IMG/VR virus record: IMGVR_UViG_3300046616_000242
Location: 1-64,000 of that record
Length of the DNA: 64,000 nucleotides
Strand: one strand, 5' to 3'
Source of the DNA: a virus
The position numbers and the translations under genes were made by a program. Positions 16,074 to 23,541 of the stretch are shown here, piece after piece. The stretch's first letter is position 1. Each line of letters begins with the position of its first letter. The notes beneath the pieces were generated by a model, which made no database searches, was not told the DNA's origin, and worked only from the letters and a program-made list of their open reading frames with translations.

Positions 16074-17612
16074 CTAACCTTCCTGGTTGTAGAAAGTTGG
16101 TACATCGACGATTTCCGCGTCGATGAATCCGCTGCCGGACTCGATCATCCGGTCCGCTGATACAGGGCGGTCGAGGGCGGTCATCTGCTCCCCGGCGTCC
16201 TTTCCGAACAGGCGACTGATCATACCGGCCTGGGCTCCGTTCCCCTTAGCCTCCAGTTTCACGGAGAAGGAATCCTGCTCCAGTTCGGTCTTCACCTTCA
16301 CCAGTTTCTGGAGCCGGTCGATCTCACCGGACAGGTTCGGATCCGCGTAGCCGCCGGTCATATCCTCGACCATCTTCATGAAGAAGACCCGCTGCGTCTG
16401 CATCTCGATGAGCGAATTCTGGAGCGAGGCCATCTGCTGCTTGCTCTTCACTTCGACCGGAATGTCGTACGCACAGTTCGCGTCCTTGTCGAAGGCCGGG
16501 CACTTCTGGGCCAGGAAGCACGCCGAGCACACCCGCATGGACTGCGAGCGGACGGTCACCAGCGGGACGTCGCGCTCCTTGTTCACGCCGTCGTCGGGGT
16601 CGGTGTAGACCTCCTTCTCCTGCACCACGCCGATGACCGGCAAGTTGGTACGCGCCCGCTCCCTGCGAGGGGTGGGAGTTGTTACGCCGTTGACCAGTTC
16701 TCCGGTGGTCGTATCAACTGTGCCCCCCTGCGTTTGAGAGAAAGCGGAGAGTATCCCTGAAGCGGAAGTAGTAACTGGATCGGCCTCGGGCGCACGGTGT
16801 TGCTCGATGGAGGCCGCGAGTTGCTGCCACGACCAGATGGTGAAGCGCAGTACCTCGTTGTTGTCGCCGTCCTCGATCTTGTCCGGGTCGAAGCCTGCTT
16901 CCTGGAAAAGAGTGCGGTGCCGCTTTCGGGCCTGGTCCTTGTATTTCTTCGGGTACCGCTTCAATTCCCGGCCGGTCCACACGATGGTGTCACCGTACTG
17001 CGAGGGGGAAATCCAGGAGGTGGACGCGACGGAATCCCAGGTGACCGCCGCCATTTCCGCAGGCTTCGTCATTGCGACGCCGTGGAGAAGGGTTCCGTAT
17101 TTCCGGGTGATCTCGTTTAGAACGGGAGCGAGATTCCGTCCGTCCAAATCCGTCTGAGTAATTCCGACACGCTTGTAGCGTTGCGCGAGGCGGTCGAGTT
17201 CATCGACGCCCCATTCCGCGTGCCAGATAGGAAGGAACTTGTCCTCCGGCAGGTCCTCCCAGAAATCCTCGCGCCGGGCCTCTATCCATTCCCGTCCGAG
17301 AACGACCGCGTCGAACTCGGACACCATATTAAGCGAGTCGATGTTCTGCTGGACGAAGGCTTCGTAGTGCGCGGCGATTTCCTTGAGTTCACCTATCGAG
17401 TACTTGTCGTCCTCGGCCTTGTTCACGGTGTAGGCACCGGAGTCGAGGAAAACCTTCTGGCCCTCCAGGTAGTGGTCCTCGATGAGCCACGGCCGGGAGA
17501 ACTTGGTGCGCCTCCGCAGCCCCATGTAGGACAGGGAGACGTTCTCGACGCCTTCCTCGGCCAGCATCTTGCGCCAGCCGGGGATCTCGGATCCGCCGAA
17601 GTACAGTTCCAC
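16074..17612 (-). CDS. TGT/DpdA-like TIM-barrel protein fused to C-terminal Cys-cluster/helical domain
   Basis: VFLDSGAYT, FLPIWH, LLHGVAMT, DSVASTSW...YG; CSACFLAQKCP...C. Confidence 0.6.
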   Translation of the reverse strand: MELYFGGSEIPGWRKMLAEEGVENVSLSYMGLRRRTKFSRPWLIEDHYLEGQKVFLDSGAYTVNKAEDDKYSIGELKEIAAHYEAFVQQNIDSLNMVSEFDAVVLGREWIEARREDFWEDLPEDKFLPIWHAEWGVDELDRLAQRYKRVGITQTDLDGRNLAPVLNEITRKYGTLLHGVAMTKPAEMAAVTWDSVASTSWISPSQYGDTIVWTGRELKRYPKKYKDQARKRHRTLFQEAGFDPDKIEDGDNNEVLRFTIWSWQQLAASIEQHRAPEADPVTTSASGILSAFSQTQGGTVDTTTGELVNGVTTPTPRRERARTNLPVIGVVQEKEVYTDPDDGVNKERDVPLVTVRSQSMRVCSACFLAQKCPAFDKDANCAYDIPVEVKSKQQMASLQNSLIEMQTQRVFFMKMVEDMTGGYADPNLSGEIDRLQKLVKVKTELEQDSFSVKLEAKGNGAQAGMISRLFGKDAGEQMTALDRPVSADRMIESGSGFIDAEIVDVPTFYNQEG

Positions 17613-17642
17613 GGGTTGTTTCTCCGAATCTGAATTGGTGGT

Positions 17643-18617
17643 CTAGAAGAGCGAGCCCTGGCCGGGGGCCGGGGGCTTCTTCGACTTCTTGCGCTCATTG
17701 ACGGAGTCGGTGAGCATCGAGTGCCACTCACTCGCCGAAGGAGCCTTGGGAGCGGCCTTCTTACGCGCCGCGCTCGGCTTGGGCGTCAGGTCGTCGAACG
17801 ACATCTGGCCCTTGCCTGGCCCCGGCTGGACCGGCTTGTCCTCCCGCTGCCGGACGGCCTTGACCTTCGGCCCGGACTCGCCCGGGGGGAACAGGCCGCG
17901 CTGTACGCCCTTGCCGACACCACCGGCAGAAGGCTGGGGGGCCGCCTGCACCACAGGGGTGGAGTTCGTACGCGCCGGGCGGGGAGCAGCCTTGGCGGCC
18001 GGAGCGAAGTTGCCCTGGCTGAACTGCTGCGGGCTCTGGACCGGGGACACCTCGGCGGGCGAGGCACCTCCCGGCTTGGGCCGGATGCCGATCTTGCGGG
18101 CGCCGCGCGAGCCGTCGGGGTTGTAGGTCGGGTAGGTGCGGATCTGGTGACCCTGGCCGTGGTCTCGCCACTCCGCCTGGCCGCCGGGCGCCGGGGACGG
18201 GCTGGCGGTCGACTTGGCACCCGCGCCGAAGGTGTCGTTGTAGGCGGCCCAGCCACCGGACTCCGACGGCTTCTTCTGCGCCTGGATGGCGTCCATGCGC
18301 TGGTTGAAGGTGTGCAGCAGGTCGGTCCCAGCGGTGGAGTGCTGCGCGTGCCAGCCGTAGGAGTCCGAGACGTGGTCCTCGCCGACGCGCTTGATCTCCT
18401 CGCGGGCGGCCGGAGACGCCTGCGGGGCGGGCGCCTGGCTCTTCTGGCCCTTGACGCGGATCTTGATGCGGGAGTTGGCGGGCTGCTGGCCCTGCTTGGC
18501 GTTCTCCAGGTCGTCCAGGCGCTGCTCGACGGAGCGGTGGGCGCCGGGGAACTGGAGCGGGCTCAGCCAGCGCTCCTTGAACTTGCTGGTGATCGCGTGT
18601 ATGCCATCGACGCTCAT
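17643..18617 (-). CDS. Low-complexity Pro/Ala/Lys-rich protein with QxxLF-like motifs
   Basis: ATG 18617; QRGLF, QMSF, C-terminal QGSLF. Confidence 0.7.
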   Translation of the reverse strand: MSVDGIHAITSKFKERWLSPLQFPGAHRSVEQRLDDLENAKQGQQPANSRIKIRVKGQKSQAPAPQASPAAREEIKRVGEDHVSDSYGWHAQHSTAGTDLLHTFNQRMDAIQAQKKPSESGGWAAYNDTFGAGAKSTASPSPAPGGQAEWRDHGQGHQIRTYPTYNPDGSRGARKIGIRPKPGGASPAEVSPVQSPQQFSQGNFAPAAKAAPRPARTNSTPVVQAAPQPSAGGVGKGVQRGLFPPGESGPKVKAVRQREDKPVQPGPGKGQMSFDDLTPKPSAARKKAAPKAPSASEWHSMLTDSVNERKKSKKPPAPGQGSLF

Positions 18618-18904
18618 GGTCGTGTGTCCCTTCGGACGAAGTAGAGGTAGCGGTGCGCGGCGAGGAGGGAGAAGAGGAAGCCGACGTTGATCCAGGACCG
18701 GCCGGACGAGGGCGAGGTCCAGAAGACGGCGCAGAAGACGGCGACGTTGGCGCTGTAGAGGAACAGGGCGGCGGACAGCCACTTCTCTGCGGCGCCGAGC
18801 TGGCGCCAGACGGGGATGGAGGCCCGCAGCAGCAGGGCCGAGAACGCGGCGCCGACGGCCGCGTTGAGGATGCGGGTAATAGTGATCACCAGGGCGACGG
18901 TCAC
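18614..18904 (-). CDS. Small three-TM membrane protein
   Basis: Three hydrophobic segments, GTGA overlap. Confidence 0.65.
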   Translation of the reverse strand: MTVALVITITRILNAAVGAAFSALLLRASIPVWRQLGAAEKWLSAALFLYSANVAVFCAVFWTSPSSGRSWINVGFLFSLLAAHRYLYFVRRDTRP

Positions 18905-19395
18905 AGGATCTCCATGTGTGGTCTCGGGTCTTCTTCGCGTAGTGCTCGTTGCCGCTCGACCTCGCCGACCAGTTCGGACCAGGGCGTGACGGTGTCGCGG
19001 TAGTCCGGCCGGAAGCGCGGGGAGGAGTAGTTGGGGTGCAGGTAGTTGAGGACCCCGACGCCCTGGGACATGACGTGCGCGGCGATCTGCGGATTGGGTT
19101 CGACCAGCAGCTCGACGTTGCATCCGGCCTGCCGAAGGCGTCCGATCTGCCGCATGCGGCGCTCGGCGGGGTCCTCGGGGTCCAGGGGGTTGGCGGGGAT
19201 CAGGTAGGGGTGCTTGTTGAAGCCGTTGACCTTCAGCCAGTACTGGACCGGCTCGATGTCCTCGCGGTCGCTGATGAGGGCGACCTTGTAGGACTCCATC
19301 AGGCCCCAGTACAGGCGCTGGCCCTGGTGGATGACGGCTTCTCCGACCTCGCGGGAGAGCACACCTTCGATGACGATGGCGACGGTTGCAGACAT
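18901..19395 (-). CDS. HAD-fold-like protein with degenerate motif I
   Basis: VAIVIEGVL in place of DxDGVL; ALISDR, WLKVNG, LLVEPNP. Confidence 0.5.
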   Translation of the reverse strand: MSATVAIVIEGVLSREVGEAVIHQGQRLYWGLMESYKVALISDREDIEPVQYWLKVNGFNKHPYLIPANPLDPEDPAERRMRQIGRLRQAGCNVELLVEPNPQIAAHVMSQGVGVLNYLHPNYSSPRFRPDYRDTVTPWSELVGEVERQRALREEDPRPHMEIL

Positions 19396-19402
19396 GGCGC
19401 CG

Positions 19403-20233
19403 TCACCCGTGCTCGTGCTCGTGGAGGCCGGTTCGGTGCTCGGTCTCGTGCGTCTGGAAGGCGTTCTTGGCGTTCATGTTCGGGCTGTAGCCGTGGTGCT
19501 TGACCAGGTGCTCGACGACGTCCTCGGGTGCCGACTTCTTCTTGATCTTCGGCAGTTGCTCGGCCTTGAACTGGTCGAGGTTGAGCACCTGGGCGCCGAC
19601 GTGGGTGTCTCCCCGGCCGCGCGCTTCAGCGAGCCGGTGGTGTGCGTCCGCGACGTACGGTGTACCGCCCTGGACGACCACCTTGACGTGCGGGTGGTCG
19701 GGATCGAGCGGGCCGGTGATGTAGGAGTGGGAGCCGGTCTCGAACGCGGTCTGGCCGGTGTGCAGCACCGAGCTGGTGCTGATGCTCTGGAACTTGGCGT
19801 GCTTGTTCCAGAACGCCTCGTTGCCGTGGCTCATCTGCGGGCCGTGCTTCTCGTACCAGCGGTCACCGATCTTGGGGTCGACGACGTTGCCGTGGCCGTC
19901 CAGGTGCCCGAACTGCTGCGGGTTGTGCGGCGGGCCCATGACCATCTGCCCCTCGGACTGGGGGTAGCTGGTGCGCTCCTCGTCGTGGATCAGGTCGTGG
20001 TCGCGCGGGGAGCCGATGGCGGTGACCTTGGTGTGCATCCCGCCCGGGTTGGGGGTGGGATGCGGGATATTAAGCGCGCCGGGTTTGTAGTGCGTTTGAA
20101 GGTGCAGCGGGGTGTCGCGCGTCAGGTGGTACTGGGCGCGCAGTGCGTTCTGCTTCTTCGCCTGCGGGGACTTGGTGTCCAGCGGGACCGGCAGTGCGGT
20201 CTGCTCGAACTGCGGCCCGAGGGGGTTGGCCAT
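19403..20233 (-). CDS. His-rich protein with ParB/Srx-like domain
   Basis: VKVVVQGGTPYVADAHHRLAEARGRG resembles ParB-N DGHHR. Confidence 0.55.
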   Translation of the reverse strand: MANPLGPQFEQTALPVPLDTKSPQAKKQNALRAQYHLTRDTPLHLQTHYKPGALNIPHPTPNPGGMHTKVTAIGSPRDHDLIHDEERTSYPQSEGQMVMGPPHNPQQFGHLDGHGNVVDPKIGDRWYEKHGPQMSHGNEAFWNKHAKFQSISTSSVLHTGQTAFETGSHSYITGPLDPDHPHVKVVVQGGTPYVADAHHRLAEARGRGDTHVGAQVLNLDQFKAEQLPKIKKKSAPEDVVEHLVKHHGYSPNMNAKNAFQTHETEHRTGLHEHEHG

Positions 20234-21225
20234 CACGACCTCCGGTAGGGGGTGTTCCAAAGAGCCGCCTTCGCGAGCGCGGTGGCGGCGTCATCGAGTG
20301 GAGCCCCGTAGAGGTCGGTCTCCTGCGCCTTGTGGGCCTCGACGTCCGTTGTGGCCAGGGAGTTCAGGGCCTGGACCGTGCCTGCCTGCTTGTGTGCCTG
20401 CCAGCGGAAGTTGTAGTAGTCGCCGTAGCCGGATCCCCCGGGGCCGAAGGCTTGCTTGCGGCCGATGTGGATGTCGTCGAAGAGGGCCTTGGCCTGCTCG
20501 ACGACGATCTTCTGGGAGGCCAGGGAGTTGTGCCACGTGGCCGAGTTCGGGGAGGCGCTGGAGGCCGTCGAGCGCAGGTGGCTGTAGCGCTCGATCAGCG
20601 TGCGGGCGTGGGCCTCTTCCGTCTGCACGGCGTCCCACCAGTGCTTCGGGTACAGGCTGTGGGGGTCGGTGGGCAGGGACGGCGGCCGGATGTCCCAGCG
20701 GTCACGGGTGAGGTTGTAGGCGGCGTAGGGGTTGATGGCCGCGATGGAATTCGACGTGGTTCCGGGGTTCAGGTAGTACGTGACCTCGTAGACCTGGCCA
20801 TGAAAATCGGTGATCGCGGTGTGCGGCCACAGGTTCTTCTTCAGGTCCGAGTTCATCAGGTCGGAGAATTCGGCTTCGGAGATTCCCTGGTAGGTGGGGT
20901 TCATCTCGTAGAACTTCGGGAAGTCGATTCCGAATAGGACGTCGAGGTCGCCGTTTCCACGGTCTCCGGCCCACTGGAAGGAGATGCCGGATCCGGCCAG
21001 CCAGGCGGCCAGCCAGGTGCGTACGCCCTGGTAGTGGCCGTCGAGGTAGGTATTAAGGACGCCGAGGATGTGGTCGCGGACGTCCGGCTTGATGTGGTCG
21101 CCGTCGAAGATGTGCGGGTCGAGCCCTGCCTGGGGTGTGCTGAAATACCCGGAGGCGCCCGTGTGAATGTCGGGCTGCTGTCCCTGGGTGATTGCGCGAT
21201 TGAGGTAGAACTCGTATCCGGCCAT
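20233..21225 (-). CDS. Pol-beta superfamily nucleotidyltransferase
   Basis: LAGSGISFQW...GDLDVLFG and later YEVTYY. Confidence 0.7.
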   Translation of the reverse strand: MAGYEFYLNRAITQGQQPDIHTGASGYFSTPQAGLDPHIFDGDHIKPDVRDHILGVLNTYLDGHYQGVRTWLAAWLAGSGISFQWAGDRGNGDLDVLFGIDFPKFYEMNPTYQGISEAEFSDLMNSDLKKNLWPHTAITDFHGQVYEVTYYLNPGTTSNSIAAINPYAAYNLTRDRWDIRPPSLPTDPHSLYPKHWWDAVQTEEAHARTLIERYSHLRSTASSASPNSATWHNSLASQKIVVEQAKALFDDIHIGRKQAFGPGGSGYGDYYNFRWQAHKQAGTVQALNSLATTDVEAHKAQETDLYGAPLDDAATALAKAALWNTPYRRS

Positions 21226-21312: not shown

Positions 21313-21702
21313 TCAGAGTTTCAGGCGGGAGCGCAGCGCGGCTTCCTGCTGCTGTTGCTGCATGGCCTGGCCCATCATCATCATCGCCTGCTGGGTCCTG
21401 GAGGCGGTCTCCATGACCTCAAGGTCCTTCAGCACGACGGAGGCCGCACCGTAGATGTCGTCGGGGGTGGCGCCGCGCCGGGGGACGAACTGCTGGGTGA
21501 GGTCGGAGGTGGCCACGACCGCACCGTCCAGGCCGACAGCGACGAGGAACGCCGTGGTGACGGGGGTGCCGATCTCGTCCTCGGAGGGCGGGTTCTCCTC
21601 GGCCATCCTGGCCAGGGTCTCGCGCTGCTCGGGGGTGAGGTCGTCGGTATTAAGCGGCTTGTCGGCGCTGCTGGTCTGGCCGAGGATCGGGATGTTGGGC
21701 AT
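21313..21702 (-). CDS. Hypothetical protein
   Basis: 129 aa ORF, GGAG RBS. Confidence 0.75.
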   Translation of the reverse strand: MPNIPILGQTSSADKPLNTDDLTPEQRETLARMAEENPPSEDEIGTPVTTAFLVAVGLDGAVVATSDLTQQFVPRRGATPDDIYGAASVVLKDLEVMETASRTQQAMMMMGQAMQQQQQEAALRSRLKL

Positions 21703-21731: not shown

Positions 21732-22217
21732 TTACTTGTACATTCCGGCCTTGCGGCGCGCGGCAGTTACGACCAGGGAGTGCACGGGGCAGAACTCGCA
21801 GAGGTAGCGGTCCTGGGCGCTGCTGTACTTCGGCATACCTGCCGCCTTGCGCTCTGCGGCGGTGTCCGGCGTGAGCCGCTTGGAGGCGGTCTTGTAGTCG
21901 TTGCAGCCGGGGTTGCGCAGGTGCTTCTGCCAGCAGGCGTGGGCGTCTTCCTGGAAGGTGTTCTTGGCGTTGTAGAACGCCGGGTCGAAGCCGGTGTGTC
22001 CCGTGTTCTCGCGGATCTTGGCGATGATCGTGTCGCGGGTGGAGGGGCTGTCCCAGTGCTTCTTCTCCACGCGCAGCAGCGGGTGGGCGATGTGGTCGGG
22101 GTGCTTCTGGACCAGGGCTTCGAGGAGGAAGTCCCTGCGCGGGTCGCCCTCGTAGTCGGGCAGTTCTTCGAGGCTGCCGCAGGTCTTACAGAGCAGGAGC
22201 CGTACGTGCTCGGCCAT
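21732..22217 (-). CDS. Zinc-binding hypothetical protein
   Basis: CKTC, H..H, C...H...C, CEFCPVH. Confidence 0.7.
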   Translation of the reverse strand: MAEHVRLLLCKTCGSLEELPDYEGDPRRDFLLEALVQKHPDHIAHPLLRVEKKHWDSPSTRDTIIAKIRENTGHTGFDPAFYNAKNTFQEDAHACWQKHLRNPGCNDYKTASKRLTPDTAAERKAAGMPKYSSAQDRYLCEFCPVHSLVVTAARRKAGMYK

Positions 22218-22309
22218 GGTGTCCTTCCTCAAGGGGCTGTTCAGGGACCAAACATAGCATCCCCACTACGCCTTTGGAAGACGTAATGGGGATGCCGTAA
22301 CGAAGTGGG

Positions 22310-23287
22310 TTACTTGCCGGTCGCCAGGTAGCGGCCGAGCAGCACGTAGGAGTCACCGGCCGTGGCGCCCTGGACGGACACCTTCTTGCCGGAGACGGCC
22401 ACCGTGCCGGATTTCGCGTGCGCGTAGCCGAGGGCTGCATTGGCCGGACCGCCGACCGCGACGACGACGTCACCGGCAGCCAGAGCGGCCTTGGCCACGT
22501 CCAGACGGCCAGTGGCGACGGCACCCTTGGGCTGGAACGCGTCAGTGGCCGCCGCAGCGGTCATGGAGTCGATGTTCTCGCCGAAGATCACCATCGTGTA
22601 CGCCTTCGCAGGGGTTGGAGCAGGAGGAGGAGTTGGCTTGGACGGAGCCGGAGGCGCGGGCGGCGCGGGCGGCTTGACGACCTTGGCCGGGATGGCCAGG
22701 GCCTTCCAGGTATTAAGGTCCCCGTTCAGCAGGTTCTGGTCGAGGCCGCCGACGATGCCGTACTGGTGCACGGTCCACGTCGCCCAGCCCTCGGTCAGCG
22801 GGTGCCCGGCCGGGTTGTTCGGGTCGGCTACCCACAGCGGGTAGGACCGCAGTTCCTTCTTCTGCGCGTCCGAAGCCACACCGAGCAGGCCGGTGAGGTA
22901 GGAGGTGTAGGTGTACAGGAGAGGGGACGCCTTCGTCTGCGCCTTCACGTACGCCAGGAACTTCAGGGCGTAGTTCAGACGCTGGCTCCAGGAGCCCTCG
23001 GACGCCTCCAGGTCGAGCGCCAGGACCTCGCCCGCCTGGGCGCCCGCAGCAGACAGGAAGTGCTTGGCCTCGCTCACCGCGTCCTGGGTCGGGTGAGCGA
23101 AGTGGTAGTGGCCCAGGGGCTTCTTCGCGGCCCGGGTGGCCTTCACGATGCTGGCGTGCCGCGTGTCGCCCGTGTGCTCGCCCTCGGACGCCTTGGCGAT
23201 GATGAAGGCGTTGTTCTTGCTGGCGATGGCCGACGCGATGTGCGCGGCGTCGTTGTTGTTGGAGAGGTCGACTCCGTGGAGGGACAT
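22310..23287 (-). CDS. Endolysin, GH25 muramidase plus Pro-rich linker and cell-wall-binding domain
   Basis: GVDLSNNN, IAKASEG, GHYHFA, LALDLE, LWVA, HQY, LDQN. Confidence 0.85.
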   Translation of the reverse strand: MSLHGVDLSNNNDAAHIASAIASKNNAFIIAKASEGEHTGDTRHASIVKATRAAKKPLGHYHFAHPTQDAVSEAKHFLSAAGAQAGEVLALDLEASEGSWSQRLNYALKFLAYVKAQTKASPLLYTYTSYLTGLLGVASDAQKKELRSYPLWVADPNNPAGHPLTEGWATWTVHQYGIVGGLDQNLLNGDLNTWKALAIPAKVVKPPAPPAPPAPSKPTPPPAPTPAKAYTMVIFGENIDSMTAAAATDAFQPKGAVATGRLDVAKAALAAGDVVVAVGGPANAALGYAHAKSGTVAVSGKKVSVQGATAGDSYVLLGRYLATGK

Positions 23288-23292
23288 CAGAC

Positions 23293-23541
23293 TCAGAATC
23301 CTGCCTGGCTCGGTGGGGTCTGGACGTAGTTGGGGGTGTGCACGGCCTTGCCGTCGGGGCGGACCTTGACCTCGTCCTCGTGGCGGCCGTACCAGACGTC
23401 GTTGAGGTCGACGCGGTGGCGCACGGTGGCCGAGTTGGCAACACCCAGGCCGCCACGGTCGACGACGATCTTCTTGTACTTGCCGTCGGTGGCGCCCTCG
23501 TTCAGTTCCGCGTTCATCGAACGCGAGGGTGCGTACGCCAT
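23293..23541 (-). CDS. Hypothetical protein
   Basis: 82 aa ORF, TAATG overlap. Confidence 0.7.
   Translation of the reverse strand: MAYAPSRSMNAELNEGATDGKYKKIVVDRGGLGVANSATVRHRVDLNDVWYGRHEDEVKVRPDGKAVHTPNYVQTPPSQAGF

Follow-up and report, generated by a model that had tools for sequence, protein, structure and literature searches.

Does a gene for a DpdA-like protein in a phage genome necessarily mean that guanines are exchanged for 7-deazaguanines in the phage DNA? DpdA is treated as a signature of 7-deazaguanine DNA modification (PMC10516641), and the question is posed by a locus in IMG/VR virus record IMGVR_UViG_3300046616_000242, a 73,946-bp contig of about 74% completeness and about 65% GC whose first 64 kb (positions 1 to 64,000, the window) were analysed here. 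A first-pass annotation of the window had proposed that a protein with the fold of a tRNA-guanine transglycosylase (TGT) is encoded together with nucleotidyltransferase, ParB-like, HAD-like and membrane proteins in a nucleic-acid modification module, the chemistry of which might differ from that of canonical DpdA. The genes concerned form a tight minus-strand run from 22217 down to 16074, which ends in the gene for a two-domain DpdA-like protein of 512 residues (DpdA512; 16074..17612, minus strand). Homology, fold, residue loss, gene linkage and the absence of a preQ0 pathway are what the module itself presents, and the operon probably does a different job from 7-deazaguanine exchange.

The structure of DpdA512 was modelled with AlphaFold from 40 homologues. 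Residues 1–272 are predicted with confidence to form a TGT-type TIM barrel (predicted local distance difference test, pLDDT, ~90), followed by a disordered linker (274–359) and, at lower confidence, by a Cys4 cluster (C362/C365/C371/C380) and a helical carboxy-terminal domain. The first Foldseek match is TGT from Zymomonas mobilis (E 1e-5, probability 1.0); Cap10 follows at rank 13 (9ntn_B, E 3.6e-5). Superpositions with VIA-align give Z scores of 16.8 for both human TGT (7nq4) and ArcTGT (1j2b), 16.4 for Z. mobilis TGT (1q2r) and 15.7 for DpdA (7UI4; root-mean-square deviation 4.0 Å, 259 residues aligned), all within residues 1–280 except for the ArcTGT row, whose range is listed to residue 499. 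The TGT fold that had been read from the motif FLDSGAYT is thereby upheld. Structural neighbours in BFVD are mostly phage proteins named queuine tRNA-ribosyltransferase, and the PHROGs family of that name, phrog_887, matches DpdA512 at E 3e-78. Sequence profiles of the classical enzymes behave differently: neither DpdA512 nor any of 44 family members matches Pfam TGT (PF01702) or DUF6610 even at E 1, PADLOC returns no DpdA match for DpdA512, an hhalign comparison of the family with E. coli TGT or with five bacterial TGTs is not significant (probability 0.5–0.7%), and the amino-terminal part of a bona fide relative, gp021 of Bacillus phage BCD7 (YP_007005872), gave no alignment to TGT when used alone.

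It is this BCD7 protein that fixes the ancestry. The barrel of the DpdA512 family is homologous to that of gp021 (hhalign 99.6%, E 1.3e-24), and so is the Cys4/helical domain (BLASTP E 7e-12, with tblastn in agreement). The two proteins share the motifs DSGAYT, E-x-D, WH, HG, W200 and QYG[D/E] as well as the CxxC-x5-C-x8-C cluster and a GG[YM]ADP motif; gp021 differs in an Asp (Asp217) where DpdA512 has Ala196, in an insert of ~240 residues between the domains and in its flanking preQ0 synthesis genes, gp021 being adjoined by GTP cyclohydrolase, QueC-like and QueE-like genes. It has been catalogued as a DpdA with a full pathway, and the homologue of Streptomyces phage BRock as that of a DpdA-only phage (PMC6884629 supplement). 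Since the homology covers both domains, we place DpdA512 by descent as a genuine member of the broad DpdA lineage, in a family that numbers 2,391 clusters at 50% identity in a representative library (E <= 1e-3). The Cys4 cluster, behind its ~85-residue linker and in a part of the model with low pLDDT, is invariant and common to gp021.

Three residues never vary in DpdA and TGT: in DpdA numbering, Asp95 acts as general acid/base, Asp130 recognises the base and Asp256 is the nucleophile; replacing Asp95 or Asp256 of DpdA by Ala abolishes exchange (PMC10164549). Alignment with gp021 matches D57-S-G, E99-x-D101, W130-H131 and H177-G178 of DpdA512; D57, in FLDSGAYT, pairs with the DSG of both BCD7 and E. 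coli TGT (TGT D102, DpdA D95). The stretch W-D-S-V-A196-S-T-S-W200 pairs with F-F-T-G-D217-S-T-T-W, in which Asp217 is the only Asp of strand 8 in gp021; DpdA512 has Ala196 at the same place. Residue 196 lies at the carboxy-terminal end of strand 8 in the model, and catalytic residues of TIM barrels are found at such strand ends. Of 74 related viral loci (35–96% identity), 72 have Ala or Ser here and one each has Thr and Leu; in 44 representatives from farther afield, reaching E 1e-76, S, G, T, A and other residues occur at this position and Asp never does. On alignment and predicted structure, therefore, DpdA512 lacks the Asp nucleophile of its true-DpdA homologue, the equivalent of TGT D280 and DpdA D256. 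We considered D193 as a substitute (WDSV against FDCV of TGT) and rejected it: it stands at the start of strand 8, is Asp in 20 of 40 homologues and is Phe in BCD7.

The rest of the pocket has been kept in these loci. All 74 retain [D/E]57-S-G and D101, and nearly all retain E99, H131, H177 and a G-[D/E]-T hairpin. The 44 representatives of the wider family all have G7, W200, P325 and the four Cys, and 42 of them have the hairpin. Some DpdA-like members are interrupted by LAGLIDADG inteins in the G-[D/E]-T hairpin (near residue 208) or in the Cys4 cluster (near 365), and because inteins are inserted there we read both sites as functionally important. The proteins concerned are P0278, P0073, P0284, P0332 and P0400; two members other than the intein carriers have an amino-terminal HNH endonuclease fusion.

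A supply of the base is likewise missing. Neither the contig nor the complete genomes of BRock and GiJojo encode members of the QueC, QueD (PTPS), FolE (GTP cyclohydrolase I) or radical-SAM families, and QueC and FolE are absent from five more close relatives that are 100% complete; the earlier observation that no folE or que gene is visible in the window thus holds and extends to the rest of the contig, to complete relatives and to hosts. Five actinomycete genomes that carry related prophages were without a match to the TGT family, and a QueC search of the same genomes gave two 23-bit matches to model positions 1–70 in open reading frames of 565–712 residues, which are presumably other PP-loop enzymes. 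As controls, the QueC, TGT and radical-SAM profiles matched in 13–14 of 14 reference genomes and those for PTPS and GTP cyclohydrolase I in 10–11. With neither the nucleophile nor, in its lineage, a source of the base, the module is, as judged from its genes, not a canonical 7-deazaguanine system. The suspicion that its chemistry differs from that of canonical DpdA is borne out to this extent, in that no 7-deazaguanine synthesis genes accompany it.

Which genes do accompany it was asked by tblastn with the window proteins on 76 viral loci, partners being counted in the 62 that have at least 6 kb upstream of the DpdA-like gene. A Cys-rich protein (g166) is encoded upstream in 62 of 62, the HAD-like protein (HAD164) in 60 and the nucleotidyltransferase (NT330) in 48, always in the same order. 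The NT330 stop codon often overlaps the HAD-like start (ATGA) across loci, and in distant relatives the HAD-like stop overlaps the start of the DpdA-like gene (24 overlapping junctions); a tight three-gene unit of NT330, HAD-like and DpdA-like genes is therefore probably ancestral. From its distribution, the ancestral core would comprise g166, NT330, HAD164 and DpdA512. By tblastn, the ParB-like, three-transmembrane (3-TM) and low-complexity (LC324) proteins were found in close relatives only, and are lineage-specific inserts, ParB-like between NT330 and HAD-like, 3-TM and LC324 between HAD-like and DpdA-like. Co-conservation of the module as first drawn thus applies to NT330, HAD-like and DpdA-like genes, with g166 added, and fails for the three inserts; ParB-like, genes of which kind had been described as frequent companions of phage base-modification loci, is no conserved partner here, and a protein search recovers only 21 close homologues of it.

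The same core is found, in the same module order, in the Streptomyces phages BRock (gp36–gp42), GiJojo (gp175–181), LuckySocke, Alone3 and pSt2308, where it runs g166, endolysin, NT330, HAD-like, a variable gene and DpdA-like. The endolysin gene thus lies inside the run in these BRock-like phages and ahead of g166 in the window; they have no detectable ParB-like or 3-TM homologues, and a different variable gene occupies the place of LC324. Identity of the window proteins to theirs is 46–48% for DpdA512, 42–49% for NT330 and 36–38% for HAD164. Among 50,697 phage records, tblastn finds NT330 together with g166 in these five phages only, and BCD7 has no homologue of either (tblastn, E 1e-3); they are therefore partners of the nucleophile-less form and not of a true DpdA.

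NT330 (20233..21225, minus strand) carries G78-S79, D93-L-D95 (D93-x-D95) and E147, all invariant in 40 homologues. The signature of the Pol-beta superfamily is hG[GS], 9–13 residues, DxD and a third carboxylate on a later strand, and the motif set of a nucleotidyltransferase is, by sequence, complete and apparently intact. The model (pLDDT 86) predicts a core at about residues 40–180 and a helical bundle at 190–308. The core superimposes on minimal nucleotidyltransferases with modest scores (1no5_B, Z 6.1 over 96/102 residues; 1ylq_B, Z 5.8; MntA, Z 5.7), and Foldseek matches to CD-NTases and ANT are weak (E 0.16–0.5). No Pfam, NCBIfam or PDB-sequence match was found, and PHROGs has no family for NT330 homologues. 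The reading of a Pol-beta nucleotidyltransferase from GS...DLD is thus firm in its motifs and modestly supported in its fold (Z ~6). An assignment of NT330 to the CD-NTases was considered and set aside, the Foldseek rows being weak and the superposition poor.

HAD164 (164 residues; 18901..19395, minus strand) has HAD phosphatases as its language-model neighbours (NIF and acid-phosphatase-B clusters, score 0.89), which is a lead only, and its GiJojo counterpart is annotated 'hydrolase'. Matches to Pfam and PDB are lacking, and the single PHROGs match is weak (E 0.001) and to an unannotated family. The region of motif I reads V-I-E-G-V-L, and [AVL]-x-[DEWN]-G-[VI]-L in 29 homologues, in which the first Asp of DxD is never present, the second is variable and G11 alone is invariant. 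Alignment thus indicates a putative HAD-like protein without the nucleophile Asp of HAD motif I, DxDx[TV]. The third partner, g166 (161–166 residues; 21732..22217, minus strand), lies beyond the gene cluster as first delimited and accompanies the DpdA-like gene more constantly than any other. Its invariant C10, H39, C95, C105, C140 and C143, with C13 also among the putative ligands, make it a probable Zn-binding protein.

The ParB-like insert (ParB/Srx-like; 19403..20233, minus strand) has its real start at M10 of the open reading frame, giving 276 residues. Its motif D[AG]HHRLAEARGRGD is invariant in 18 relatives, it carries DAHHRLAEARGRGD and a His-rich tail, and its language-model neighbours include ParB_N clusters (0.92–0.93); the ParB-N-like assignment has these in its favour, and no Pfam or PDB-sequence match. 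At the carboxy terminus (window 19403–19560) the conserved tail reads H..H....GLHEHEHG, and there are many invariant His along the protein, which suggests metal binding.

The six open reading frames first grouped together are real: all are present on the minus strand with G+C of 0.80–0.92 at third codon positions, and their junctions are tight or overlapping. The NT330 stop and ParB-like start overlap by 1 nt, the HAD164 stop and 3-TM start by GTGA and the 3-TM stop and LC324 start by ATGA; the remaining gaps in the six-gene run are 7–30 nt, and no terminator-like site was found on the minus strand between 21225 and 16074. The 3-TM gene encodes a small membrane protein with a GTG start and, as first described, three hydrophobic segments by hydropathy; it spans 18614..18904 (minus strand), its boundary being 18904 and not 18874. 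LC324 (17643..18617, minus strand) was defined by its composition, rich in Ala, Pro, Gly, Ser, Lys and Gln, and by tblastn in close relatives, in which its identity is 36–77% and reaches 100% only in a near-identical contig (L017). It ends in QGSLF, also contains QRGLF and QMSF, and has no family match in Pfam, PHROGs, NCBIfam or PADLOC. Between NT330 and g166 stands a gene for a small Gln/Met-rich protein (g129; 21313..21702, minus strand), homologues of which are detectable in about a third of loci. Directly upstream of the module is a GH25 endolysin gene (22310..23296, minus strand, start codon not fixed; PF01183 E 1.5e-24, phrog_291). A hairpin with a 19-bp stem (22256..22296, minus strand) lies between the two, directly after the endolysin stop and 39 nt ahead of the g166 start, and may be a terminator, attenuator or processing site that separates the module from the lysis gene. 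Scans with Pfam, NCBIfam and PADLOC matched none of the module proteins, DpdA512 is the only module protein with a PHROGs family assignment, megablast against phage records found no matches, and family profiles of DpdA512, NT330, HAD164, ParB-like and g166 found no meaningful match among PDB sequences.

Nearly all genes of the window are on the minus strand, ordered as tail and structural genes from 50 kb up, replication genes, GH25 endolysin, module and a region of small genes. Close relatives are viral contigs of 100–110 kb with direct terminal repeats, whose DpdA512 is 84–96% identical; BRock, GiJojo, LuckySocke, Alone3 and pSt2308 are more distant, and apparently integrated relatives occur in genomes of Streptomyces, Terracoccus, Nonomuraea, Kitasatospora, Saccharothrix and Herbidospora. 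The carrier of the module is thus an actinophage of Streptomyces type, in a large clade of ~100–115-kb actinomycete phages whose cultured members BRock and GiJojo are myoviruses. Its host is probably a Streptomyces, given a DpdA512 copy at 89% identity in a Streptomyces assembly. Relatives of the ~105-kb phage type (L088, L099, L086) are embedded in Streptomyces and Terracoccus contigs as large as chromosomes (1.1 to 7.7 Mb), and one IMG/VR relative is assigned to the provirus class; BRock, in contrast, is described as virulent and without lysogeny genes. GC is 52% in BRock and 65% in the window phage. No tRNA gene lies in the window or near the module. Complete close relatives have five, His(GTG), Asn(GTT), Leu(CAA), Phe(GAA) and Pro(TGG), as compared with 29–35 in BRock-like phages, which also encode an RNA ligase and a Ro-like protein (PMC7453282). 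The same five-tRNA set is seen at L101 (G002:C1:101000-104000) and L102 (G004:C1:28500-30700), and the tRNA-His call in the complete close relatives is 86 nt long.

Three known systems offer comparisons. The module resembles the Dpd system of Salmonella Montevideo (DpdA, 7UI4) in the barrel, in the DSG-type general-acid Asp and in its Asp/His candidates for base recognition; in the window's own lineage only, a ParB-fold gene in the operon recalls DpdB, a ParB-fold ATPase required for DpdA (PMC10164549). It differs in having no Asp256 equivalent, no preQ0 supply and no DpdC–K genes, and the ParB-like protein of the window is small, reads DAHHR where DpdB has DGQQR and is confined to close relatives. 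With TGT (PF01702), DpdA512 shares the fold over residues 1–277 and the DSG motif, and it lacks the sequence-profile match and an Asp280 equivalent, the Zn site being replaced by the distant Cys4 cluster. The third is Cap10–CdnD (9NTN) of the type IV cyclic oligonucleotide-based antiphage signalling system (CBASS), where a TGT-fold protein is genetically coupled to a nucleotidyltransferase of the Pol-beta superfamily; Cap10 is a TGT-fold enzyme with re-paired catalytic residues, D248/H226 (bioRxiv 10.1101/2025.04.06.647259). Here there is no QueC-like Cap9, the setting is a phage and not a defence island, NT330 is not demonstrably a CD-NTase, and Cap10 keeps the catalytic Asp that DpdA512 does not. 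From this precedent, a TGT fold paired with a nucleotidyltransferase can serve a task other than on nucleic acid.

What, then, might the module do? Two of its three enzyme-like folds are without their attacking residues, and binding or scaffolding is for this reason at least as likely as base exchange. The account that we favour, tentatively and at a little less than an even chance, has the module recognise nucleic acid or act as a scaffold on it, the chemistry being left to the nucleotidyltransferase. DpdA512 would descend from a two-domain DNA 7-deazaguanine transglycosylase of BCD7 type and would have lost the Asp through which the covalent glycosyl-enzyme intermediate arises, in a lineage without a source of 7-deazaguanine; selection would still act on its pocket, on the G-[D/E]-T hairpin and on the Zn/helical domain. 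It would dock on nucleic acid, most parsimoniously DNA, and bind, but not exchange, a flipped guanine-like base. DpdA512 and the translationally coupled pseudo-HAD protein may form a complex that serves as a recognition or scaffold unit, and NT330, as the active partner, would supply the chemistry, nucleotidyl transfer to an acceptor. A more specific version, for which we see an outside chance, has the pseudo-DpdA barrel and pseudo-HAD scaffold bring NT330 to guanines in DNA (or to G34 of GUN tRNAs), leaving a nucleotidylation mark or providing an anti-defence activity; if true, either would be of a kind not yet described in phages. Several observations weigh against the favoured account. NT330 is missing from 14 of the 62 loci, so it cannot be an obligatory catalytic partner everywhere. 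That Ala196 marks the nucleophile site rests on the BCD7 alignment and a predicted model rather than on superposed residues, and the hhalign alignment to bacterial TGTs, collinear but not significant and not relied on here, sets S199 and not A196 opposite the nucleophile. In the wider family Asp57 of the DSG motif is kept in 31 of 44 representatives and lost in ~30%, a decay by which the pocket may not be a conserved functional element; and conservation of the pocket within the module-bearing clade also fits an active enzyme with altered chemistry.

That last possibility, which we think rather unlikely though it deserves most attention among the alternatives, is that DpdA512 performs glycosyl transfer or acts as a glycosylase through a relocated nucleophile or water, on a base that is not a 7-deazaguanine and that NT330 perhaps makes or activates. 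The nucleophile candidates are D/E208, in the G-[D/E]-T hairpin, and S197-T198-S199. The near-invariance of the pocket residues at carboxy-terminal strand ends across the 74 module-bearing loci speaks for it, as do the retention of D/E208 in 42 of 44 distant representatives, the intein placed exactly at the hairpin in P0278 and the example of Cap10, which re-pairs its catalytic residues. To be set against these are the invariance of the Asp nucleophile in DpdA and TGT and the loss of exchange on its mutation, the absence of a visible donor-base pathway in the phage, the loss of the general-acid Asp57 in the wider family and the weak alignment, the only collinear one, in which D/E208 pairs with a TGT residue that follows the PTR motif and has no catalytic part. 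Canonical DpdA action, by which preQ0 or another 7-deazaguanine scavenged from the host would be put into phage DNA to escape restriction, agrees with the cataloguing of the BRock homologue as that of a DpdA-only phage (Hutinet 2019, PMC6884629 supplement), with the GenBank names 'dpdA-like tRNA-guanine transglycosylase' and 'queuine tRNA-ribosyltransferase' and with the fold and DSG motif. We regard it as scarcely tenable, with the Asp nucleophile absent from every member examined, no preQ0 genes in the contig and seven complete relatives (four families searched in two, QueC and FolE in five), five prophage-carrying host genomes without TGT or a convincing QueC, and no family member reaching Pfam TGT or DUF6610 at E 1.

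The remaining alternatives move the barrel to other ligands, and none of them strikes us as probable. It could bind the G34-U35 anticodon loop of phage or host GUN tRNAs so as to shield, mark or repair them, with the nucleotidyltransferase and HAD-like proteins as RNA-end-processing partners. The main substrate of TGT is tRNA, His(GTG) and Asn(GTT) are among the five tRNAs of complete close relatives, and the BRock-like phages have their large tRNA sets, RNA ligase and Ro-like protein; yet gp021 of BCD7 is catalogued as a DNA transglycosylase (PMC6884629 supplement), DpdA512 lacks its nucleophile and the HAD-like protein its catalytic Asp, two GUN tRNAs in five are a weak enrichment and the window has no tRNA gene near the module, all of which leaves this an improbable reading. 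A part in packaging is slightly harder still to credit: DpdA512 would be a DNA-recognition factor like a small terminase, the dead barrel and Cys4/helical domain binding a site. A 535-residue 'terminase small subunit' of Gordonia phage Jumbo (A0A1B3B0G4) is at rank 21 of the BFVD Foldseek search (E 2.6e-6), the annotation of the GiJojo record, in the part that was covered, names no small terminase, the long carboxy-terminal helices predicted for DpdA512 could oligomerise, and the GiJojo gene stands among resolvase and endonuclease VII genes. That gene is, however, ~75 kb from the terminase gene, the gene of the window is 34 kb from the nearest tail genes on a contig without a terminase, the Jumbo annotation is a database label only and its superposition is poor (root-mean-square deviation 28 Å), and tblastn with the carboxy-terminal domain of DpdA512 finds DpdA-like proteins only. 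Either the Jumbo annotation is wrong or the family is linked to packaging. Very unlikely, finally, is an anti-defence decoy, a dead TGT fold that sequesters a nucleobase-type immune ligand or a deazaguanylated protein. Cap10, which holds NDG-modified CdnD inactive, is among the top structural matches (9ntn_B), the pairing of TGT-like protein and nucleotidyltransferase is known from type IV CBASS, and an ArdA-like anti-restriction gene lies nearby in GiJojo; the examined hosts are without convincing QueC-family genes and hence without Cap9, there are no PADLOC matches, and the case for NT330 as a CD-NTase is not convincing.

A recognition or scaffold role around NT330 thus continues to be the account that we prefer. 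The nucleophile losses of the DpdA-like and HAD-like proteins, like g166, were not part of the first-pass annotation, and we found no published description of the nucleophile loss or of the conserved partners. The BRock homologue is annotated in GenBank and RefSeq as DpdA or queuine tRNA-ribosyltransferase. Because a large family is uniformly without the nucleophile, and neither the lineage nor the hosts examined have a supply of the base, a forecast of deazaguanines in phage DNA that is made from the genome is probably wrong for the whole nucleophile-less branch. With an apparently intact nucleotidyltransferase, a HAD-like protein devoid of its nucleophile and a probable Zn protein as constant partners, it points to an unstudied activity in phages of Streptomyces and other actinomycetes, of which BRock and GiJojo are members in culture.

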